Shown: positions 19,556 through 41,638, counted from the stretch's first letter. The stretch: 64,000 nucleotides of DNA from an uncultured Alphaproteobacteria bacterium (GCA_963714615.1 CAVQOV010000010.1:440106-504105), one strand, 5' to 3'. Translations and numbers: made by a program. Notes: generated by a model not told the origin, from the letters alone.

Positions 19556-19953
19556 TATGCACGGATGGCCTGTAAGCCGGATTCTGTCCAAGAGGTTGCC
19601 CCCTCTGGATGACCATTCCTCTGCGTCCGCCGTTACCGGCGAACGTCAAGCTGCCAACCCGGACCTCTGGGCTGAAGCGTCCCTGCAGGCGGTATCGGTT
19701 GCCCGACCAGCCCTGCGCGAGGTCCCTATTCGGCATTGCTCCGGGTGGGGCTTGCCATGCCGCGCCTGTTGCCAAGCCCGCGGTGCGCTCTTACCGCACC
19801 TTTTCACCTTTTCCGATCCGAAGACCGGTAGTCTGTTTTCTGTGGCGCTTTCCCTCGGGTTTCCCCGGCCGGGCGTTACCCGGCACCCTTGCTTCATGGA
19901 GTCCGGACTTTCCTCGGACGTTGCCGCCCGCGATCATCCAGCCATCCGCGCAA
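19556..19953 (-). ncRNA. rnpB: RNase P RNA (bacterial type A)
   Basis: Minus strand carries universal motifs GAGGAAAGTCCGGACTCC (P4 5' half), GGTGAAAAGGTGCGGTAAGAGCGCACC, CCACCCGGAGCAATGCCGAATAGGG, ACAGAATCCGGCTTACAG (P4 3' half); terminal P1 helix GCGCGGATGGCTG / CAGGCCATCCGTGC; ~398 nt. Three overlapping ORFs in the track are artefacts. Confidence 0.85.
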
Positions 19954-25862: not shown

Positions 25863-26643
25863 ATGGAACAAAAGACCCCAGAGGGCGACCGGATCGCCAA
25901 GGTGCTGGCGCGGGCCGGTGTTGCCTCGCGGCGCGAGGTGGAGCGGATGATCGAGGCCGGGCGGGTTTCGGTGAATGGCAAGGTCATCGCGAGCCCGGCG
26001 CTGAACGTGACGGCGAAAGACAGGATTGCTGTCGATGGCATGGCGGTCGGTGAGCCGGAGCCGCCGCGGATCTGGCTTTTCCACAAGCCGCCGGGGCTGG
26101 TGACGACGGAAAAGGATGAACGCGGCCGCCAGACGGTGTTCGATGCGCTGCCCAAGGACATGCCTCGGGTGATGTCGATCGGGCGGCTGGACATCAATTC
26201 GGAAGGGTTGCTGCTGCTGACCAATGACGGCGGGGTCAAGCGCCGGTTGGAGCTGCCCTCAACCGGCTGGGTGCGCAAATACCGCGTGCGGGTCAAGGGG
26301 ACGCCCGAGGATGCGATGCTGGAGCCGCTGCGCAAGGGTATCACCGTCGAAGGCCAGCGGTTTCAGCCGATGAGCGTGACGATCGACCGGCAGCAGGGCG
26401 CGAACGCGTGGCTGACGATCGCGATCAAGCGAAGGCAAGAACCGCGAGATCCGGCGCGCGATGGAGCATGTCGGGCTGGTGGTGAACCGGCTGATCCGGG
26501 TGAGTTACGGGCCGTTCATGTTGCGCGAGTTGCGCGCCGGGCAGGTCGAAGAGGTCAAGCCGCGGGTGGTGCGCGACCAGCTGGGGCTGTCGACCGAGGG
26601 CCATGCGGAAGTGAAGAAAAAGCCGGTGCGCAAGCGGCGGTGA
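25863..26643 (+). pseudogene. pseudouridine synthase (RsuA/RluB family: S4 domain + catalytic domain), frameshift at ~26440
   Basis: S4 domain ...RIAKVLARAGVASRREVERMIEAGRV...; catalytic ...GRLDINSEGLLLLTNDG...; after ...ANAWLTIAI the conserved ...REGKNREIRRAMEHVGL..VNRLIRVSYGPF... block continues in another frame (ORF 26461-26643). Confidence 0.75.
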
Positions 26644-26818: not shown

Positions 26819-27646
26819 ATGGCCGAACTTCTGACATTCGAGAATCTGGGAAATCTGGTGATGCTGCTGTTTTTGCAGGCGGTGCTGGGGTTCGACAACC
26901 TGCTGTATATCTCGATCGAGAGCCAGCGCGCACCGGTGGCGCATCAAAAGGCGGTGCGGTTCTGGGGCATCATCATTGCGGTCGTGCTGCGCGTGGTTCT
27001 GCTATTCGTGATGATCCGGCTGATCGGCGCGATGTCGGAGCCGTTCTTTGTGCTGAACCTTCCGGGGCTGATAGAGGGCGGGGTGAACTTTGCCACGCTG
27101 GTCTTTGTTTTCGGCGGTATTTTCATCATGTACACGGCCGTGAAGGAGATCGGCCACATGCTGTCAATCGAGCATCTGGATGCCGATATTCAGCAGGTGC
27201 GGGGGCGTTCGGCGGCCTCGGTGATTGCGTTCATCGTGCTGATGAACCTGATTTTCAGCTTCGATTCGGTGTTGTCGGCCCTGGCGATCACGGATGTGTT
27301 TCCGGTGCTGGCGCTGGCGATCGTGGCCTCGGGCGTCGCGATGCTGGTGCTGGCCGATGGCGTGACCACGTTCTTGCAGAAGAACCGGATGTACGAAGTT
27401 CTGGGCCTTTTCATCCTGCTGATCGTGGGCGTTGTGCTGTTGGGCGAGGCCGGACCGGCCGCGGCGCATGCGATGCATGATGACGCGTTGCAGATCAAGG
27501 TGCTGGGCTATGACATCATTCCGATGTCGAAATCGACGTTCTATTTCAGCGTGCTTGTGCTGGTTGCGGTCGAGATCGTGCAGTCGGGCTATACCCGCAA
27601 GCTGAGCGCCGAACGCAAGGCGCAGGCGCGCACCGCGCAAATCTGA
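26819..27646 (+). CDS. TerC-family integral membrane protein
   Basis: 275 aa, ~8 TM; TerC-type N-terminus ...NLVMLLFLQAVLGFDNLLYISI... Confidence 0.85.
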   Translation: MAELLTFENLGNLVMLLFLQAVLGFDNLLYISIESQRAPVAHQKAVRFWGIIIAVVLRVVLLFVMIRLIGAMSEPFFVLNLPGLIEGGVNFATLVFVFGGIFIMYTAVKEIGHMLSIEHLDADIQQVRGRSAASVIAFIVLMNLIFSFDSVLSALAITDVFPVLALAIVASGVAMLVLADGVTTFLQKNRMYEVLGLFILLIVGVVLLGEAGPAAAHAMHDDALQIKVLGYDIIPMSKSTFYFSVLVLVAVEIVQSGYTRKLSAERKAQARTAQI

Positions 27647-27796
27647 ACTCTGGTAAGGGCTTGGCCCATGTCTTATATGGGTCTGGGTGTTGATACAGTG
27701 GAAAGTGGGGCTGTGCGTGTCTGAGACAGGGCTACAGAAGATCGCCTTTTTCCTGCTGTTGGCGCTGATCCTTTATGTTGCGGCATCGGGGGGCGT

Positions 27797-28693
27797 GTGA
27801 TGGCAGAGCGCTATGGCGGCAAATACAGCCCCGAGGCGGATCGCGACCGGCCGGAGCCGCCGCCCAGCAAGTGGCAAGGCAAGCGGCGCACCCGTGCCGG
27901 GGGCCGTGTCAACATGCTGTTTCTGGCGCCGCTGCCGCTGGCCATTCGCGCCTTTGCGCAAGATCCTGCCGGTCTGGCGCTGAACCTGTTCGGCTTTGCG
28001 CTGCTGATGCTGGCGGCCTGGCTGACCCGCGAGGGGATACTGGCGCAAGAGGCCTATGAGGCGCGCCGGATTGCGCGCCGCCCTGCCCTGCCGCGCAAGA
28101 TGATCGCCTCGGTCCTGACCGGGGCGGGGTTGTTCGTGGCGGCCTTCGCGGCGAATGACAGCCTGCTTAACCCGTCGATCTTCGCAGTGCTGGGCTTTGC
28201 GCTGCATGCGTTTGCCTTTGGCCTCGATCCGATGCGCGACAAGGGCATGGAGGGCGTGGACACCTTCCAGCAAGACCGTGTGGCGCGCGCCGTGGGCGAG
28301 GCGGAAAAGCATCTGGCCGCGATGAAGGAGGCGATCGCGCGCGCCGGCGACCGCAAGCTGGAGGCCCGGGTCGAGCGGTTTCAGGATCTGGCGCGCGACA
28401 TGTTCCGCACCGTCGAGGAAGACCCGCGCGATCTGACCGCCGCGCGCAAGTATCTGGGCGTCTACCTGCTGGGTGCGCGCGACGCGACCGCCAAGTTCGC
28501 CGACATATACGCACGCAGCCGCGACGCCAGGGCGCGGACCGATTACGAGGCGCTGCTGGATGATCTGGAGAAGAATTTCGCCGCCCGCACCCAGGCGATG
28601 CTTTTGGACAACAAGACCGACCTGAACGTTGAAATCGAAGTGCTGCGCGAAAGACTGGAACGCGAAGGCGTCCATGCGCGCGACTATCAGTAA
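27797..28693 (+). CDS. XpaC-like membrane protein (5-bromo-4-chloroindolyl phosphate hydrolysis protein family); alternative start at 27914
   Basis: Two N-terminal TM helices followed by a ~180-aa charged helical region; family habitually paired with TelA. Confidence 0.65.
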   Translation: MMAERYGGKYSPEADRDRPEPPPSKWQGKRRTRAGGRVNMLFLAPLPLAIRAFAQDPAGLALNLFGFALLMLAAWLTREGILAQEAYEARRIARRPALPRKMIASVLTGAGLFVAAFAANDSLLNPSIFAVLGFALHAFAFGLDPMRDKGMEGVDTFQQDRVARAVGEAEKHLAAMKEAIARAGDRKLEARVERFQDLARDMFRTVEEDPRDLTAARKYLGVYLLGARDATAKFADIYARSRDARARTDYEALLDDLEKNFAARTQAMLLDNKTDLNVEIEVLRERLEREGVHARDYQ

Positions 28694-28709
28694 AGAGGAC
28701 ATCAGACCC

Positions 28710-29896
28710 ATGACAGAGACCGTTCGCCAGAAAGCCGCCGCCGATTTGAAGATGATCGAGGATGTCACCGCCGTGCTGCTGCCTGAACCCACGACCGAGC
28801 TGGTGCCGCTGGCCAAGGCCGACAAGCCCGTGGCCGCCGAGATCAAGAAGCGGATGGCCGAGATCGACATGGAGAACACCGGCTCTATCATCGGGTTCGG
28901 ATCCGGCGCGCAGGCCGAGTTGCAGGAGATCAGCCAGGCGATGCTGGCGGATGTGCGCAACAAGGATGTGGGGCCTGCGGGCGATTCACTTGCGCGAGAT
29001 CGTGACGACGATCCGGGGCTTCTCGATCAGCGAGCTGGATGTGCGGCGCAAGCGGTCGTGGTGGGAACGGCTGACGGGCAGTGCGGCACCTTTCGCCAAG
29101 TTCGTGGCGCGCTACGAGGATGTGCAGGGCCAGATCGACAAGGTGACCGACAACCTGTTGAGCCATGAGCACAAGCTGCTCAAGGACATCAAATCGCTCG
29201 ATATCCTGTATGAAAAGACCCTGAGTTTTTATGACGAGCTGGCGCTTTACATCACCGCCGGCGAGGAAAAGCTGACGGAACTGGACCACAAGGTGATCCC
29301 GGCCAAGGAAACCCAGGTCGCCAAGGCTCGCGACGACAAGGGTGTGATTCTGGCGCAGGAGTTGCGCGATCTGCGCGCGGCGCGCGACGATCTGGAGCGC
29401 CGGGTGCATGACCTGAGGCTGACGCGGCAGGTGACGATGCAGTCGCTGCCCTCGATCCGGCTGGTGCAGGAGAATGACAAATCGCTGGTGACGAAGATCA
29501 ACTCGACCTTGGTCAACACCGTGCCGCTGTGGGAAACCCAGCTGGCGCAGGCGGTGACGATCCAACGCTCATCCGAGGCGGCGGCGGCGGTGCAAGGAAG
29601 CCAGCGATCTGACCAACGAGTTGCTGACCGCGAATGCCAAGAACCTGCGGCAGGCCAACAAGACCGTGCGCGAGGAGATGGAGCGCGGGGTTTTCGATAT
29701 CGAGGCGGTCAAGACCGCCAATGCCGAACTGATCGCGACGATCAACGAGAGCCTTCAGATCGCTGACGAGGGCAAGAAGAAGCGCGCGGCGGCGGAAGCG
29801 GAGCTGAAGAAGATGGAAGCCGAATTGCGCGACACGCTGGCCTCGGCCAAGGCGCGGGGCGACAAGTCGGGCGACACCATCGGCACTGCGGTTTGA
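28710..29896 (+). pseudogene. telA: TelA-family toxic-anion (tellurite) resistance protein; frame changes near 28990 and 29600
   Basis: Three consecutive fragments in different frames (28710-~28990, ~28990-~29600 with long coiled-coil ...LSHEHKLLKDIKSLDILYEKTLSFYDELALYI..., 29621-29896) together give a ~390-aa TelA-like protein. Confidence 0.8.
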
Positions 29897-29908
29897 GGTA
29901 GGCGGACC

Positions 29909-30865
29909 TTGGGCGCATTCGGCAATATTGCAGGACCACGCCGGTGGGCGGTGGCAGCGCTGCTGGCGCTGGCGGGGTGCGTGAACGGCCAGTTCGCGGT
30001 TCCGGACGCGGGCACCGGGGCGCCGGTGGCGCCTGCCCCGGCCGCGCCGATGGTGCAATCGCAATCCTCGAAGGATCTGGAGCTGTATTATCTGCGGGTG
30101 CAGAACGATCTGCTGGCGCGCGGGCTGCTACGGGTTGATGGCGGCGGGCCGGATGTGCCTTATACCGCGCGCAATCTGGCCGAGAACTTTGCCGCGATTG
30201 CGCTGTCCGAAGAGTTGCGGGTGGAAAACGGCCGGGTGCTGCCCGGCAAGCCGCTGATCACCTTGCGCCGCTGGCGTGGGCCGATCCGCTTTGGCATCCA
30301 TTTCGGCGATACCGTGCCCGAGGACATTCGCGTCAGCGACCGGGCCTTCATCGAGGCCTATGTAAAGCGGTTGGCGCGGATCACCGGGCATCCGATGTCG
30401 TTGGCATCAAACAACACCAATTTCGACATCGTGATCCTGCACGAGGATCAGCGGCTGGCGGTGAACCCGCTGTTGCAGCGCGCCGGGGTGACGCCGAGCC
30501 GGGGCATGATCGACGCCATCGCGGGGATGAGCCGCAATGATTATTGCGCGGTGCTGACCGAGGACCGCAAGAACGACGGGGTCATATCCAATGCGCTGGC
30601 GATCGTGCGGGCCGAGCATTCCGAGATGATGCGGCGGATGTGTTTCCACGAAGAGATTGCGCAGGGTCTGGGGTTGTTCAATGACAGCCCGCGGGCACGG
30701 CCCTCGATCTTCAACGACGACGAGGAATTCGGGCGGCTGACCACGCATGACGAGATGTTGCTGCGGATCCTGTACGATCCACGGATGCGGCCCGGGATGT
30801 CGGCCGCCGAGGCGGAGGCGATGGCGGTGGTCATCGCCAATGAACTGGTAGGCGGCGAGAGTTGA
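29909..30865 (+). CDS. lipoprotein of unknown function (DUF2927-like, tentative)
   Basis: Lipobox LALAGC at the N-terminus; 318 aa; contains CFHEEIAQGLGL, a degenerate zincin-like HExxH-like segment; 12 nt after telA. Confidence 0.55.
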   Translation: MGAFGNIAGPRRWAVAALLALAGCVNGQFAVPDAGTGAPVAPAPAAPMVQSQSSKDLELYYLRVQNDLLARGLLRVDGGGPDVPYTARNLAENFAAIALSEELRVENGRVLPGKPLITLRRWRGPIRFGIHFGDTVPEDIRVSDRAFIEAYVKRLARITGHPMSLASNNTNFDIVILHEDQRLAVNPLLQRAGVTPSRGMIDAIAGMSRNDYCAVLTEDRKNDGVISNALAIVRAEHSEMMRRMCFHEEIAQGLGLFNDSPRARPSIFNDDEEFGRLTTHDEMLLRILYDPRMRPGMSAAEAEAMAVVIANELVGGES

Positions 30866-30883
30866 ACCAAGGGGAGAGGTGTC

Positions 30884-32009
30884 ATGGGTATTCTTGATTT
30901 TCTGACGGGCGAGTTCATCGATGTTATCCACTGGACCGATGACACCCGCGACACGATGGTCTGGCGGTTCGAGCGCGAGGGCCACGAGATCAAGTACGGC
31001 GCCAAGCTGACCGTGCGCGAGGGTCAGGCGGCGGTGTTCGTGCACGAGGGGCAGCTGGCGGATGTGTTCACGCCGGGGCTCTACATGCTGGAGACCAACA
31101 ACATGCCGGTGCTGACGACGTTGCAGCACTGGGATCACGGGTTCAAATCGCCGTTCAAGTCCGAGATTTATTTCGTCAACACGACCCGGTTTACCGATCA
31201 GAAATGGGGCACCAAGAACCCGATCATCGCGCGTGATCCCGAGTTCGGGCCGATCCGGCTGCGCGCCTATGGCACCTATTCGGTGCGGGTGACGGATCCG
31301 GCGAAGTTTCTGGTCGAGATCGTCGGCACCGACGGCGAGTTCACGATGGACGAGATCAGCTTTCAGATCCGCAATATCATCGTGCAGGAATTTTCCCGCG
31401 TGATCGCGTCCTCTGGGCATTCCGGTGCTGGACATGGCGGCCAACACCGCCGATCTGGGCAAGCTGGTGGCCGGGGCGATCAGCGCCACGATCGCGCAAT
31501 ACGGGCTGGAGCTGCCGGAGCTTGTACATCGAGAACATCAGCCTGCCGCCGGCGGTGGAAGCGGCGCTGGACAAGCGCACCAGCATGGGGCTGGCGGGCG
31601 ATCTGGGCAGTTCACGCAATATTCCGCCGCCGAGGCGATGACGGCGGCGGCGGCGCAACCCGTCTGGCGGCGGCATGGGCGCAGGGATGGGTGCGGGGAT
31701 GGGTGCCGGAATGGGCATGGCGATGGGCGCGCAGATGGCGCATCAGGGGCCGTGGGGGGCGGTGCCTGCGGCGCGCGGGCGCCGCACCGCCTCCGCCGCC
31801 GGTCGAGCATGTCTGGCATGTGGCCAGGGACGGCAAGACCGAGGGGCCGTATTCGCGCGCCACATTGGGACGGATGGCCGCCGATGGCAGCCTGACCCGC
31901 GATGCCCATGTCTGGACCCAAGGGCCAGGATGGCTGGAAGCGGGCCGAGGAGGTGACCGAACTGGCGCAGCTGTTCACGGTGATGCCGCCACCGCCGCCG
32001 GGGGCCTGA
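30884..32009 (+). pseudogene. SPFH/Band-7 protein of the Band_7_1 (YdjI-like) type with GAGMG low-complexity linker and C-terminal DUF4339/GYF-like domain; at least 6 single-base indels between ~31420 and ~31925
   Basis: N-terminal MGILDFLTGEFIDVIHWTDDTRDTMVWRF... in frame 2; continuation ...IPVLDMAANTADLGKLVAGAISATIAQYGLELPELYIENISLPPAVEAALDKRTSMGLAGDLG.FTQYSAAEAM...GMGAGMGAGMGAGMGMAMGAQMAHQGPWGAV...PPPPPVEHVWHVARDGKTEGPYSRATLGRMAADGSLTRDAHVWTQGQDGWKRAEEVTELAQLFTVMPPPPPGA* obtained only by changing frame 2>0>1>0>1>2>0; stop TGA 32007-32009. Confidence 0.7.
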
Positions 32010-32021
32010 GCGGGCCGGCCG

Positions 32022-33118
32022 ATGGGCGACGGAAGAACACCGGTTTCCCTGCGACGCCTGCGGCGCGGACATGCGGTTTGCGCCCGGCGAGGGCCAGCTG
32101 GTCTGCGACCATTGCGGCAATGTCGCACCGCTGCGAGGCCGATGGCTTTGCGCATGCGCCGATCCGCGAGCTGGATTTCAACGCGGCGCTGGCCGCCGAG
32201 CTGCCGGCGCAGGAGATCGAGGAAAAGCGCGTCTCGTCCTGCCCCAATTGCGGCGCCGAGATCGAGTTCGATGCCGCCGTCCATGCCGTCGAATGCCCGT
32301 TCTGCGCCACGCCCGTGGTCATCGGCACCGGCACCCAGCGCTATATCAAGCCGCGCGGGTTGCTGCCCTTCGGGCTGACCGAGCCGCAAGCGCGCGACGC
32401 GATGACGCGCTGGCTGGGCGCGCTGTGGTTCGCGCCGAACGGGCTGCAGGAATATGCCCGCAAGGGGCGCAAGCTGGACGGCATCTACGTGCCCTACTGG
32501 ACCTACGACGCGGATACCAAAAGCGATTACCGGGGCGAGCGCGGCATGGTCTACTACGAGACCCGGACGGTGACGCGAAACGGCAAGACCCAGCGGATAC
32601 AGGTGCAGAAGGTGCGCTGGCACCCGGCGTCGGGCCATGTGGCGCGGTGGTTTGACGATGTGCTGGTGCTGGCCTCGAAGAGTCTGCCCAAACGGTTCAC
32701 CGACGCGCTGCAACCCTGGGATCTGTCGGCGCTGGAACCTTACCGGCCCGAGTATCTGGCCGGGTTCCGGGCCGAGGGTTATACGATCTCGCTGGAAGAT
32801 GGCTGGGTCGATGCGCGGGACCAGATCGACCGGGTGATCGAGCGCGACGTGAAATTCGACATCGGCGGCGACAGGCAGCGGATCCACAATATCCAGACGG
32901 CGATTTCGGATGTGACCTTCAAGCATATCCTGCTGCCGGTCTGGATGGCCGCCTACAGATATCGCGGCCGCACGTTCCGCTTCGTGGTCAATGGCCGCAC
33001 CGGGCGAGTGCAGGGCGAGCGGCCATGGTCGGCGTGGAAGATCGCGATTGCGGTGGTGCTGGGCGCGCTGCTGGCGGCGGCCGTGGGATACGGGATTGCG
33101 TTGCAAGAGCAGGGGTGA
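32022..33118 (+). pseudogene. double zinc-ribbon protein with ~250-aa uncharacterised domain and C-terminal TM anchor; indels at ~32025 (GGG run) and ~32135
   Basis: Ribbon 1 FPCDACGADMRFAPGEGQLVCDHCGNVAPL (frame 1), ribbon 2 SCPNCGAEIEFDAAVHAVECPFCATPVV (frame 2), then ...YIKPRGLLPFGLTEPQARDAMTRWLGALWFAP...GIYVPYWTYDADT..., ending with the TM helix WKIAIAVVLGALLAAAVGYGIAL; 13 nt after the SPFH gene. Confidence 0.65.
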
Positions 33119-33139
33119 ACGTGGCTCGGCGCACTTCTT

Positions 33140-33170
33140 GGAGGCGGCGGAGCCTCCGGCGGGGATATTT
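33140..33170. repeat. intergenic element copy 2: hairpin GGAGGC-n6-GCCTCC followed by GGCGGGGATATTT
   Basis: Same 19-nt core as 26711-26729; lies 22 nt after the stop of the zinc-ribbon gene, between convergent genes. Confidence 0.45.
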
Positions 33171-33222
33171 GGGAACAGATGAAGGCGGCCCGGCAGCACG
33201 GTGCGGCCGGGCCGGGCGATGA

Positions 33223-33654
33223 TCAGCTTTTGCTGATTTCGATTTTCTTCGTGCCAGAGCCTTTGGGCGATGGCTTCTTGGGCACCGTGACCGTCAGCAC
33301 GCCGTCCTTGAGATCGGCCTTGACCGCGCCCTCATCGGCATCCGAGGGCAGCCGGAACGAGCGCGAAAACGAGCCGTATTCGCGTTCCGAGAAATACCAG
33401 TTGTCGCCCTTCTCTTCGCGGCTGGTTTTCTTTTCGCCCTTCACCGTCAGCATTCCGTTATCGACGGCGAGGTCGATGTCTTTTTCCTCGACGCCCGGCA
33501 GTTCGACCGCGATGCGGTAGGTGTCGCCATTCACCGATGCCTCGGCGGCGGGTGCCAGCCAGTCGGATAGCCGCGTTCCGAAATTTCGGAAAGGCTCGAA
33601 CATTTGCGGCCACATGCCGCTTGAAACTGATTTCTCGACCATTTTCGACTCCAT
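33223..33654 (-). CDS. Hsp20/alpha-crystallin family small heat-shock protein
   Basis: alpha-crystallin domain ...GDTYRIAVELPGVEEKDIDLAVDNGMLTVKGEKK...FSRSFRLP...GVLTVTVPKK. Confidence 0.85.
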   Translation of the reverse strand: MESKMVEKSVSSGMWPQMFEPFRNFGTRLSDWLAPAAEASVNGDTYRIAVELPGVEEKDIDLAVDNGMLTVKGEKKTSREEKGDNWYFSEREYGSFSRSFRLPSDADEGAVKADLKDGVLTVTVPKKPSPKGSGTKKIEISKS

Positions 33655-36878: not shown

Positions 36879-38389
36879 TCACTGATGCGCCTGCGGCTTG
36901 GTCATGTAGCGGCGCAGGAACATCGGCGCGATGAAATCCCAGTACGGCTGCGAGATCAGCAGACCGATGGCGATGCCCGACGAGAACAGATAGGTCCAGT
37001 CGCCATCCGACAGCACCATCGCGTCGCGCAGCTGCTTTTCCATCTGGTTGCCCAGCAGGATGCCCAGGATCACCGGAACGGTCGGCATATCGAGCTTGCG
37101 CAGGACATAGCCCAGCGCGCCGAAGGCCACGACCAGCAGCAGATCGAAATAGCTGCCGGTCAGCGAATAGATGCCGACGAACGAGATCATCGTGACGCCC
37201 GGCATCAGGATGGCTGGCGGCACTTGCAGCACCTGCACGAAGATCTTGACCATCGGCACGTTCATCGCCAGCAGCACGAAGTTGGCGATCAGAAGCGAGG
37301 CGATCAGGCCCCAGACCACATCGGGCCGGTCGGTGAACAGCGTCGGTCCGGGCGTGATGTTCAGCGTCATCAGCACCGCCAGCAGAACGGCCGTGGTGCC
37401 CGAGCCCGGAACGCCCAGCGTCAGCATCGGCACCAGCGCGCCGCCCGCGGCCGCGTTGTTGCCGGCCTCGGGCGCCGCGACGCCCTTGGCGCACGCCGGT
37501 GCCGAAGCCGCCCTTTTCGCCTGCGATGGATTTTTCCATCATGTAGGTCATGAAACTGCCCAGCGAGGCCCCGGCCCCCGGCAGAACGCCCGCGATGAAG
37601 CCCAGAAGCGATGAGCGCAGCATCGTCCAGCGCGTCGACCAGATCTCGCGCCAGGGCATCGTGACCTTGCCCAGCTTCACGCCGAGCGCGCCGGATTTGC
37701 CGTGGCTTTCGATGAAGAAGAACACCTCGGACACCGCGAACAGGCCGACGATGGCGACCAGGAAATCGATGCCGTCCATCAGGTGCAGATTGCCGCCCGT
37801 CAGCCGCGGCATGCCCGAATTGGGGTCCAGCCCGATCATCGCGATCATCAGCCCGATGCAGGACGCGAGCGCCGCCTTGGCCTGGTTGTTCGACGAGATG
37901 CCGCCCAGCGTGCGAGAACGCCAGAAGATAAAGCGCGAAATATTCCGCCGGGCCGAACTGATAGGCGATCCGGCTGAGCAGCGGGGCCAGCAGCATCAGG
38001 CCGATGGTGGCCAGAAGCGCGCCCGACGAAAGAGGCGACGCCCGAGATCACCAGCGCATCGCCCGCCCGGCCCTGCTTGGCCATCGGATAGCCGTCGAGC
38101 GTGGTCATCAGCGCCGGTTCGTCGCCGGGAATGTTCAGCAGGATCGAACTGATCCGCCCGCCATACATCGCGCCGTAGTAGATCGACGGTCAGCAGCACC
38201 AGCGCCGCGGTCGCATCGAGCCCCAGCGTGAAGGTCAGCGGGATCATGATCGCGACGCCGTTCGACGGGCCAAGGCCCGGCAGCGCGCCGACGATCGTGC
38301 CGATGAAAGCAGCCGATCACCGCCAGCATCAGCGTGTAGGGCGACAGGGCGATGGAAAAGCCCAGCTGCAGGTTTGCAAGAATATCCAT
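36879..38389 (-). pseudogene. tctA: tripartite tricarboxylate transporter permease TctA; at least 4 frame changes
   Basis: Fragments MDILANLQLGFSIALSPYTLMLAVIGCF..., ...MYGGRISSILLNIPGDEPALMTTLDGYPMAKQGRAGDALVISGVASFVG..., ...MIAMIGLDPNSGMPRLTGGNLHLMDGIDFLVAIVGLF..., ...MPMLTLGVPGSGTTAVLLAVLMTLNITPGP...RRYMTKPQAHQ* are all TctA segments in different frames. Confidence 0.75.
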
Positions 38390-38392
38390 GAT

Positions 38393-38846: not shown

Positions 38847-39818
38847 TTACTGGATCACGCCGATCTTGCGCGACAGATCCTCGGTCTGGGCGATCACGCC
38901 GTCGATCCAGCTCTGGAAATCGCCGCCGACCTTGGTGAACGGGCGCAAGACCGTTATCGGCCATCGCCTGCTGCCACTCGGCGCTGTCGGCGACCGCCTG
39001 CAGACTTGTCGGCCCATGTCGTGGAAGTCCGTCGTCCGAGATGCCGCCCGGCACGTAAAGACCGCGCCAGTTCACCGCGACGACGTCAAAGCCCTGCTCG
39101 CGCGCGGTCGGGATATCCTCGAAGCCCGGCACACGCTCTTCGGTCAGGACCGCAAGAACGCGCACTTCGCCGGACTTCATGAAGCCCACGATTTCGGACA
39201 TGTCGCCGGTCATCGCCTGGGTGAAGCCGCCGACGGTCTGGGTGATCGCATCGGCGCCGCCATCGACACCGATGTACTTGATCTTGGTGATGTCGTCGAA
39301 GCCGGCAGCCAGCAGGACCTGAAGCGGTTTCATGTGGTCGAAACCCGCCAACGGCCGAGCCGCCGGCGAAGGCGACCGAGCCCGGATCGGCCTTGATCGC
39401 GTCGACCAGGTCGCCAAGCGTTCTGGAACGGGCTGTCGGCCGCGACGACGATCACGCCCGGATCGGCGCCGATGGCGCCCACGAAGCGCACCTGATCGGC
39501 GGTGGCACCGCCATAGGCGTTCTGCGCAAGCCGCGTCGTCGTGGCGGAGGACGCGGCCACGATCAGGTCGGGATCGTCGTTGCGCTCATTCACGACGGTC
39601 GTGAACGCCAGACCGCCGCCGGCGCCGGCCATGTTGGTGACCTGCACGGGCTGATCGACCTGGCCGATGTCATACAGGATCTTGCCGATCTGACGGCAGG
39701 TGAAATCCCAGCCGCCGCCGGGGTTGGCCGGCGCGATGCATTCGGCGGCCATGGCCGAGGTGGCCGCAAGGCCGATTACGGCGCTGGTTGCCAGCGCCTT
39801 CAAGAAGCGTGTTTTCAT
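38847..39818 (-). pseudogene. tctC: tripartite tricarboxylate transporter substrate-binding protein TctC; frameshift ~39370-39420
   Basis: Signal peptide MKTRFLKALATSAVIGLAATSAMA + Bug-family N-domain in ORF 39330-39818; C-domain in ORF 38806-39417 in another frame. Confidence 0.7.
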
Positions 39819-39999
39819 AGTATCCTCCCAATTTCATCCGCAGGGTTGGCCCTGCTTTGTGTCCCTTTGGACTTAGGCGAAGAAATACCAACTGAGCGCA
39901 TCCGTCAAACAGGGATTGGCGTACTGCGGGAAATTTGTGCCGTGTTTGTACAGCGTTTCCGAATTGCCCGGCGAAATCAAACATGAAACAGCTTGTGCC

Positions 40000-40674: not shown

Positions 40675-41638
40675 CTTTTGGCCGCGCTGCCCGAAAATAC
40701 ACCGAACACCGATGATGAAGCTGCTCGCGCGGGCTGACTATACTACAACGGCAGGCTGACGCAGGACCAGATCGCGGCAGAGCTGGGCGTGTCACGCCAG
40801 CGCGCGCAACGGCTGGTGGCCCGGGCGGTGTCGGACGGGCTGATCCGGGTGCGCATCGAGCATCCGATCAAGGACTGCATGGAACTGGAACAGGAGCTGC
40901 GCAGGGCCTTCGGGCTGACGCTTTGCCGGGTGGCACCAAGCCTGTCGGAGGGTATCGATCCGGTGCGCGCCATAGCGCCGGTGGCCGCGGCCGAGGTCGA
41001 GAATATCTTTGCCAACAAGAGCCCCAAGGTTGTCGCCCTTGGGACCGGGCGCACGCTGTGCACGGTGGTGAATGACTTGCGCCCGATGGATTGAGCGCAT
41101 CACAAGGTGGTGTCGCTGCTGGGCAATGTGGCGCCCGACGGGTCGGCCTCTTTCTTCGAGGTGATCATGCGGATCGCCGACAAGACCCGCGCGCCACACT
41201 ATCCGATGGCGATGCCGGTGATCGCCAAGGACGCGGCGGACCGGGCGCATTATCACGCCCTGCCGCATGTCAAAAACACCCGCGAGCTTGCGCAGTCGCG
41301 CCGATTTCACCATCGTCGGCATCGGGCAGATGAGCGATGACGCGCCGCTGCTGGTCGACGGCTTCGCCTCGGCTGACGAATTGCACGACATGACGGTGGC
41401 GGGTGCTGTGGGCGAGATGGTCGGATGGGCGTTCGATGGCCAGGGGCGCTATCTGCAAACCGGCATCAACACGGTCGTCAACGGGGTTCAGGTTCCGCAA
41501 AATGACAACCCGGTGATCTGCATCGCCGCCTGGGCCAGCAAGTACCTGCCGCTGTTGGGCGCGCTTCGGGGCAAGCTGATCACCGGCCTGATCACCGACG
41601 AAACCACGGCAAAGTTCCTTTTGGGACAACCGCTTTAG
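40671..41638 (+). pseudogene. SorC-family sugar-binding transcriptional regulator (SmoC-like); N-terminal region carries an in-frame TGA/indels, further frame changes near 41095 and 41270
   Basis: HTH ...DDEAARAG*LYYNGRLTQDQIAAELGVSRQRAQRLVARAVSDGLIRV...; sugar-binding domain continues through three frames. Confidence 0.7.

Follow-up and report, generated by a model that had tools for sequence, protein, structure and literature searches.

A conserved XpaC-TelA-DUF2927-SPFH-zinc-ribbon gene array of Rhodobacterales that may unite two membrane-associated gene pairs

At positions 26819-33654 of a 64,000-nucleotide stretch of DNA from an uncultured alphaproteobacterium (GCA_963714615.1, CAVQOV010000010.1:440106-504105; the whole stretch is called the window here), six genes follow each other on one strand and a seventh converges on them. 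The host is a marine Rhodobacterales bacterium carrying this gene array. The original prediction, made from the sequence alone, had read the cluster as a candidate composite membrane-stress module of TerC, XpaC, TelA, a lipoprotein, an SPFH protein and a zinc-ribbon protein (ZnR), facing an Hsp20. All seven genes were found at the coordinates of that first reading, and Pfam searches bore out each of its domain assignments. TerC, XpaC, TelA, the DUF2927 lipoprotein, SPFH and ZnR share a strand and Hsp20 is convergent. The spacers from xpaC through telA, the DUF2927 gene and the SPFH gene to ZnR measure 16, 12, 18 and 12 nt, and Shine-Dalgarno-like sequences precede telA, the DUF2927 gene and the SPFH gene. 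The gap between TerC and xpaC is about 150 nt long and contains a small open reading frame (mini-ORF). The features of the locus are as follows.

26819..27646 (+): TerC-family integral membrane protein, 275 aa; Pfam PF03741, E = 2.7e-33; 7 hydrophobic segments by hydropathy
27717..27800 (+): unannotated mini-ORF of 27 aa with one transmembrane (TM) helix; sequence V/M-SETGLQKIAFFLLLALILYVAASGGV
27800..28693 (+), start 27797/27800: XpaC (Halogen_Hydrol); Pfam PF10112, E = 2.3e-28; frame intact
28710..29896 (+): TelA, toxic anion resistance family; Pfam PF05816, E = 1.4e-105
29909..30865 (+): DUF2927 lipoprotein; Pfam PF11150, E = 6.6e-54; lipobox LAG|C
30884..32009 (+): SPFH protein, YdjI/SamI homolog; Band_7_1 PF13421, E = 8.6e-102; GYF_2 PF14237, E = 1.2e-19
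32022..33118 (+): ZnR, tail-anchored double zinc-ribbon protein, YdjG/SamG homolog; Pfam Zn_ribbon_RRN7; eight invariant Cys
33119..33222 (no strand): structured spacer between ZnR and hsp20, probable shared transcription end; minimum free energy -54.2 kcal/mol, z = -3.0 versus shuffles
33223..33654 (-): Hsp20/alpha-crystallin small heat-shock protein, convergent; Pfam PF00011, E = 1.7e-28

The last two genes of the array had been likened by their architecture to Bacillus YdjI and, plausibly, YdjG. As comparators we used a B. subtilis-type pspA-ydjGHI locus that was retrieved from metagenome contigs with a published ydjG cloning primer. ZnR aligned to YdjG with 27% identity over 337 aa (BLASTP, E = 5e-40), and the ZnR family profile matched YdjG with an hhalign probability of 100% (E = 1.4e-44, 316 columns). 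The SPFH protein was 29% identical to the B. subtilis-type YdjI over 261 aa (BLASTP, E = 4e-37). These alignments show genuine homology of the SPFH protein to B. subtilis YdjI/SamI and of ZnR to YdjG/SamG; the families are not unrelated, and the suspected likeness has thus become one of homology.

ZnR consists of two N-terminal Cys4 ribbons, an alpha/beta core of about 230 aa, which is the YdjG/SamG-family core, and one TM helix at the extreme C-terminus (hydropathy). Since this is its sole TM helix, ZnR is predicted to be tail-anchored, with its whole body in the cytoplasm. The eight ribbon cysteines (C10, C13, C28, C31, C73, C76, C91 and C94) are invariant in alignments of 22 and of 43 sequences. 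An AlphaFold2 (AF2) model built from the 43 diverse sequences reached a predicted local distance difference test score (pLDDT) of 88.5; it replaced one from a shallow, Rhodobacterales-only alignment, whose pLDDT of 45 made it unusable. B. subtilis YdjG has the same layout: Ravi et al. (PMC11237479) describe a pair of zinc ribbons, a domain related to YpeB and a TM segment. The family is very large: at E <= 1e-3 it numbers 7,620 clusters (50% identity), and its full-length matches reach down to about 35% identity. Its members appear in databases as 'primosomal protein N' (replication factor Y)', 'DNA-directed RNA polymerase subunit RPC12/RpoP', 'ribosomal protein S27E' or 'TFIIB-type zinc finger'; thousands of entries are thus misleadingly named and should be read as SamG/YdjG-like.

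The SPFH protein has no hydrophobic segment by hydropathy and is predicted to be soluble. Its Band_7_1 domain is followed by a (GAGMG)n linker, a proline run, a GYF_2 domain (the former DUF4339) and a C-terminal PPPPPG. YdjI ends in a double zinc ribbon (CPNCG...CPNCG); here the GAGMG linker is present and leads to GYF_2 flanked by proline runs instead. These runs, PPPPPPV upstream and [ML]PPPPPG-x at the C-terminus, bracket GYF_2 in 82 of the 85 orthologs, which span three phyla (about 31780-32009 in the window). A weak match links GYF_2 to a domain of solved structure, the GYF domain of Myxococcus GltJ/AgmX (7z3c). Proline-rich motifs are the ligands of GYF domains. As proline runs flank GYF_2, a built-in GYF domain with its own proline ligand could plausibly promote self-association of the SPFH protein.

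To place the locus among its relatives, we compared it with a related-locus set made up of the best 80 matches, all from Rhodobacterales; a second search, aimed at outgroups, returned mostly Rhodobacterales again, together with a divergent lineage (loci L093 and L094). Rhodobacterales counts include one genome per species and loci with enough upstream DNA. XpaC, TelA, DUF2927, SPFH and ZnR are collinear in 66 of 67 Rhodobacterales species, and because the order is kept so widely the arrangement is far beyond chance. TerC adjoins xpaC in 14 of 66 Rhodobacterales loci (Actibacterium, Roseovarius, Yoonia, Marinovum and other genera) and also in L093 and L094; it is a facultative upstream neighbour. 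In 12 of 78 loci an hsp20 gene follows ZnR at a distance of up to 3 kb; it is adjacent in eight of the 78 and absent from L001, the closest relative. Hsp20 is therefore an incidental neighbour outside the conserved array, and its inclusion in the original module does not hold, while TerC, which in the window is indeed adjacent and on the same strand, belongs to it only at times.

The divergent lineage carries TerC-XpaC-TelA-SPFH-ZnR without DUF2927, so that telA abuts the SPFH gene directly, and its ZnR is about 53% identical to that of L001 (tblastn). Its flanking genes differ, with gatCA upstream and TM2 or hemY downstream. As the association of TerC, XpaC-TelA and SPFH-ZnR survives this change of context, we regard these two loci as the best argument, drawn from gene neighbourhoods, for a functional link. 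Gene order is thus conserved both within Rhodobacterales and in a lineage with other flanks. Farther out, seven of eight loci outside Rhodobacterales (five Bacteroidota-type, one Phycisphaerae and one unassigned, L091) show only the SPFH (Band_7_1 + GYF_2) gene followed by ZnR, with no TelA, XpaC, DUF2927, TerC or PspA within 8 kb; at the eighth, L092, the ZnR homolog stands alone. ZnR lies next to a Band_7_1 SPFH gene in the window, in 67 of 67 Rhodobacterales and in 7/8 of the other-lineage loci, and the SPFH-ZnR pair is the deeply conserved unit. Since this pair travels alone outside Rhodobacterales, the array is a lineage-specific union and no universal module.

The spacing of the genes across species, in the order junction, median gap, loci with gaps of at most 50 nt and loci with gaps above 300 nt, was as follows.

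XpaC to TelA: median 25 nt; <=50 nt in 66/67; >300 nt in 0
TelA to DUF2927: median 7 nt; <=50 nt in 65/67; >300 nt in 0
DUF2927 to SPFH: median 27 nt; <=50 nt in 54/70; >300 nt in 8/70
SPFH to ZnR: median 280 nt; <=50 nt in 20/74; >300 nt in 37/74

The tight spacing first noticed is thus real in the window (12-18 nt), but for SPFH-ZnR the 12-nt spacer is a compact state and not the rule. In many roseobacters this last junction holds an opposite-strand gene for a CZB-domain protein and a same-strand gene for a membrane protein of about 140 aa. The CZB (chemoreceptor zinc-binding) insert, of about 122 aa, was seen at L011 9555-9923 (-) and L025 9555-9923 (-), and the membrane protein, which has no Pfam family, at L036 9552-9971 (+), L025 9109-9531 (+) and L058 8057-8548 (+).

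A consensus scan found no terminator-like sites at the junctions from xpaC to ZnR; its promoter and terminator counts equalled those of shuffled sequence, which makes it uninformative on operon boundaries. The structured spacer between ZnR and hsp20 is a probable shared transcription end, a role that is tentative because the spacer has no clean U-tract. Some 150 nt ahead of xpaC, phylogenetic footprinting revealed a two-part, promoter-like element, cTTCCCCCTAGc-N~16-CCTAAGTTt, in 25 TerC-less species (among them loci L009, L011, L012, L016, L017, L021, L024 and L025). The element is absent from the window. In the TerC-bearing Roseovarius a variant lies between TerC and the xpaC unit, so TerC is not necessarily on the xpaC transcript; in L002, L010 and L015 the element stands between TerC and the mini-ORF. 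Assignment of the element to a sigma-32-type factor was rejected: the spacing is similar, but the TTG required by RpoHI/RpoHII (PMC3441632) is missing.

XpaC and TelA are adjacent, on the same strand and in the order Halogen_Hydrol then TelA. Hydropathy predicts three TM segments in XpaC, along with a helical domain in the cytoplasm, and TelA is predicted to be soluble and helical. The first 11 residues of XpaC, MA-x-R-[FY]-GGK-[FY]-SP (window 27800-27835), are kept in nearly all orthologs and are followed by 30-40 variable residues; on the cytoplasmic tail, they could serve as a short linear motif for binding. A PPP motif at the XpaC N-terminus was considered as the ligand of the GYF domain and rejected, since it occurs in only 3 of 70 orthologs. 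A second, divergent XpaC paralog (24-29% identity) was observed upstream of xpaC, at the position that TerC takes in other species, in five loci (L009 4754-5518, L012 4811-5488, L017 4171-4857, L077 4299-5087 and L081 3961-4578). PDB sequence searches returned no match for TelA or for DUF2927. The DUF2927 protein has two conserved Cys and the invariant motifs C-x-HEE-x-x-QG-x-GL-x-ND and PSIFNDD-x-EF-x-x-LT-x-x-DE, a pattern that hints at a metal-binding site, or a degenerate zincin-like one, in this protein.

The TGA stop of the mini-ORF overlaps the xpaC ATG (TGATG). In at least 31 of 68 loci the same peptide, of the form MS-[EDG]-TG-[LV]-QK...GG-x, stops at 0 to -5 nt relative to the start of xpaC; it belongs to no Pfam family. 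The mini-ORF probably encodes a small membrane protein that partners XpaC and is coupled to it in translation. It is an extra member of the array and appears undescribed in the literature searched. Existing annotations of the region vary, with 34 aa in L001 and 71 aa in L002.

The TerC protein carries the PF03741 domain and scores below the NCBIfam YkoY and YjbE cut-offs. Rfam searches of the regions before TerC and xpaC, covering the window cluster and five related loci, gave neither a yybP-ykoY riboswitch nor any other known RNA. The sole Rfam match in the window is a bacterial class A RNase P RNA at 19557-19949 (-) (RF00010, 291 bits).

The B. subtilis homologs act together with partners that were looked for here. 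Recruitment of YdjI, a soluble SPFH protein, to the membrane, and through YdjI that of PspA, requires both YdjG and YdjH (PMC8581546), and SamI restrains the SamGH membrane complex independently of PspA (bioRxiv 10.64898/2026.02.06.704340). As first noted, no PspA accompanies the pair: tblastn found no match in the 64-kb window or in about 90 related loci with a B. subtilis-type and an E. coli PspA sequence as probes, which detected each other at E = 4e-13. YdjH/SamH (TPM) likewise gave no tblastn match in the window or the related loci, and no TPM family occurred in the Pfam-annotated neighbourhoods. The locus is therefore not of the Psp type, having neither a PspA/IM30 gene nor a YdjH/SamH gene between those for ZnR and SPFH. 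TelA and XpaC were also compared with PspA and with each other as possible remote homologs, which was rejected (hhalign probability at most 0.2%).

We lean towards reading the locus, on its observed gene content, homologies, topologies, conserved order and absence of PspA in cis, as a union, specific to Rhodobacterales, of two membrane-associated pairs that are each conserved on their own, with TelA and XpaC as the clients of a scaffold. One pair would be XpaC-TelA, with the 27-aa TM mini-protein before it and, in Rhodobacterales proper, the DUF2927 lipoprotein gene tightly appended. The other would be the soluble Band_7_1 SPFH protein with its GYF_2 tail, followed by the tail-anchored double zinc-ribbon protein. 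By homology with SamG and SamI, ZnR would be anchored in the inner membrane, its whole body facing the cytoplasm, and would recruit the SPFH protein, which might then oligomerise at the membrane into a scaffold, possibly aided by GYF binding to the flanking proline runs. Because no PspA or YdjH/TPM is encoded nearby and XpaC and TelA are co-encoded, the scaffold would most likely have membrane-anchored XpaC and soluble, helical TelA as its clients or effectors. The resulting sub-membrane assembly could protect or remodel the inner membrane under envelope stress caused by oxyanions or membrane-active compounds. The functional coupling of the two pairs is suggested by the conservation of the array, and the physical interactions, the co-transcription and the kind of stress that is answered are inferred.

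The serious alternative, which we consider possible though clearly less probable than a union with XpaC and TelA as clients, is frozen synteny: XpaC-TelA(-DUF2927) and SPFH-ZnR would work separately and be neighbours by descent only. Several observations weigh on its side and so against a functional union. The two pairs are unlinked outside Rhodobacterales, in the five Bacteroidota-type, the Phycisphaerae and the unassigned L091 loci, and the sole exception within the order, Rhodosalinus (L059), retains SPFH-ZnR without XpaC, TelA and DUF2927. The housekeeping genes rluB, upstream, and dtd, downstream, are syntenic within the order too, so that simple descent accounts for part of the conservation. 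Insertions of more than 300 nt interrupt both the DUF2927-SPFH and the SPFH-ZnR junctions in some species, and since at the latter they occur in half of the 74, co-transcription of ZnR with the rest is not general. Two further points count against the scaffold reading itself: B. subtilis SamG works together with SamH, which is missing here, and a replacement of PspA by TelA/XpaC is proposed from context, as no sequence relationship to PspA exists. What descent by itself explains poorly is that order and strand are kept in all but one of the 67 species while the presence of TerC, Hsp20 and PfkB varies, and that the array persists in L093 and L094 between wholly different flanks, with TelA abutting SPFH. 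Both pairs, moreover, concern the cytoplasmic face of the membrane.

Two further explanations, a relic of pseudogenes and a defence island, fit the data much less well. TelA, SPFH and ZnR are not encoded intact by the sequence as written, and could have been inactivated by frameshifts in this genome. Mapped from the intact orthologs of L001, whose ZnR is 85% identical to the window's, net frame changes number two in TelA (near 28985-28989 and 29592), at least five in SPFH (near 31414, 31522, 31608, 31652, 31780 and 31920) and two in ZnR (near 32028 and 32130). At least nine changes thus fall within 4.4 kb, and they are mostly single-base insertions outside long homopolymer runs. Similar breaks, however, occur elsewhere in the window, in rluB (25863-26640), TctA (about 36880-38390), TctC (three; 38850-39820) and a SorC-type regulator (40678-41632). 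With L001 as the reference, the ratio of nonsynonymous to synonymous divergence (dN/dS) stays at 0.04-0.13 across all in-frame segments of the window genes, also where a break lies upstream, at a dS of about 0.8-1.5; it is 0.04-0.08 in the segments that flank breaks, 0.04-0.06 in all three TelA segments and 0.125 in XpaC. Neither in-frame stop codons nor large deletions were seen, and the orthologs are intact in all related genomes. Since like breaks occur window-wide and dN/dS is low on both sides of them, the breaks are not a decay specific to the cluster. Low dN/dS in all in-frame segments indicates strong past purifying selection on the cluster genes; the breaks are probably sequence errors, or else extremely recent, and pseudogene decay is quite improbable. 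The source sequence looks error-prone, as an unpolished long-read or low-coverage assembly would be; frame-breaking single-base indels occur at about one per kb in several window genes.

Least probable of all, in our judgement, is an anti-phage or xenobiotic defence island of the Ter type. TelA and TerC do belong to Ter systems, for which such a role has been proposed (PMC7824862), but PADLOC matched none of its families to the seven proteins, no homolog was found in viral contigs, and the array occupies a stable chromosomal site among housekeeping genes and is vertically inherited. Neither TerD- nor TerB-family proteins accompany TerC, and the interval holds no biosynthetic Ter genes: all of its genes were assigned to other families, and no TerA, TerB, TerD, TerE, TerF, TerZ, KilA or TelB was found in 26819-33654, the interval to which the TerB/TerD scan was limited. 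The description of TelA, XpaC and TerC as classical Ter components was therefore overstated, all the more since published work on XpaC and TelA favours envelope stress over tellurite chemistry.

The component families of the array are known, and the SamG/SamI pair is already characterised in Bacillus. To our knowledge, work on SamG/SamI (YdjG/YdjI) has been confined to B. subtilis and to the pair as part of a PspA operon. TelA and XpaC are widespread and influence tolerance to nisin, daptomycin and tellurite. In the literature searched, two features besides the mini-ORF appear undescribed, namely the GYF-tailed pair without PspA or SamH in several Gram-negative phyla, and the fixation of this pair beside XpaC-TelA, with TerC facultative, in Rhodobacterales. 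The original claim that the link had not been characterised accords with this, as no paper describing it was found there; an earlier mention of TelA next to SPFH genes in Anantharaman et al. 2012, on Ter systems, is possible. A SamI/SamG pair free of PspA and SamH occurs in Bacteroidota-type lineages, Phycisphaerae and Alphaproteobacteria, the SPFH protein bears a proline-flanked GYF domain outside Bacillus where YdjI has its zinc ribbon, and one large marine order has fixed the pair beside XpaC-TelA. That an SPFH scaffold has TelA/XpaC for its client is a specific and testable hypothesis that may offer a clue to how both pairs work, and roseobacters with genetic tools are tractable organisms for it. 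A bolder version, which we offer as doubtful, would make SPFH(GYF)-SamG a widespread, PspA-independent Gram-negative scaffold whose client in Rhodobacterales is XpaC-TelA(-mini-protein, -DUF2927), with TelA as a sub-membrane effector placed at damaged membrane, a non-homologous analog of PspA. If true, it would give the long-enigmatic TelA and XpaC a concrete mechanism.

Among known systems, the major vault protein joins an SPFH-like shoulder to a region proposed to be TelA-related (Suprenant 2007 and Tanaka 2009, as cited in PMC3762200). TelA and SPFH are separate proteins here, and the likeness serves as a literature lead only. With the Ter systems (terZABCDEF; kilA-telA-telB of RK2) the locus shares TelA and a TerC-family protein; unlike them, the array has no TerZ, A, B, D, E or F, no KilA and no TelB, and TerC itself is present in a minority of relatives (14/66). 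A chromosomal telA of Rhodobacter sphaeroides is a reported tellurite determinant (O'Gara 1997, as cited in PMC6955997).

The Firmicute xpaC-telA (yaaN) pair of B. subtilis, Listeria (lmo1966-67) and E. faecium consists of the same Pfam families in the same order and is closely spaced. It differs in that the pair is preceded here by the 27-aa TM mini-ORF and followed by DUF2927 and SPFH-ZnR. XpaC and TelA influence phospholipid microdomains and the tolerance of daptomycin and nisin (PMC6811118, PMC12791056); induction by envelope stress and tolerance phenotypes are known for Firmicutes only, apart from the tellurite phenotype of R. sphaeroides telA. TelA is predicted to form sub-membrane structures (PMC7824862).

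Like the SPFH scaffolds HflK/C-FtsH, QmcA-YbbJ/NfeD and flotillin-NfeD, the array places an SPFH gene beside that of a small membrane-anchored partner, with a presumed role in organising a membrane-proximal complex. In contrast to these systems, the SPFH protein here has no anchor of its own and its partner is a tail-anchored zinc-ribbon protein, not an NfeD protein or a protease. From pspA-ydjGHI of B. subtilis, the array differs in having neither pspA nor ydjH/TPM, in its reversed order, with SPFH before ZnR, in the SPFH tail, which is GYF_2 with proline runs instead of a double zinc ribbon, and in its Gram-negative host, where the pair sits after XpaC-TelA-DUF2927. The two loci nevertheless have much in common: ZnR is a full-length homolog of YdjG/SamG with the two zinc ribbons, the core and the C-terminal TM helix, the SPFH protein is a Band_7_1 homolog of YdjI/SamI that likewise has no TM helix, and in both loci the SPFH and ZnR-type genes are neighbours on the same strand.

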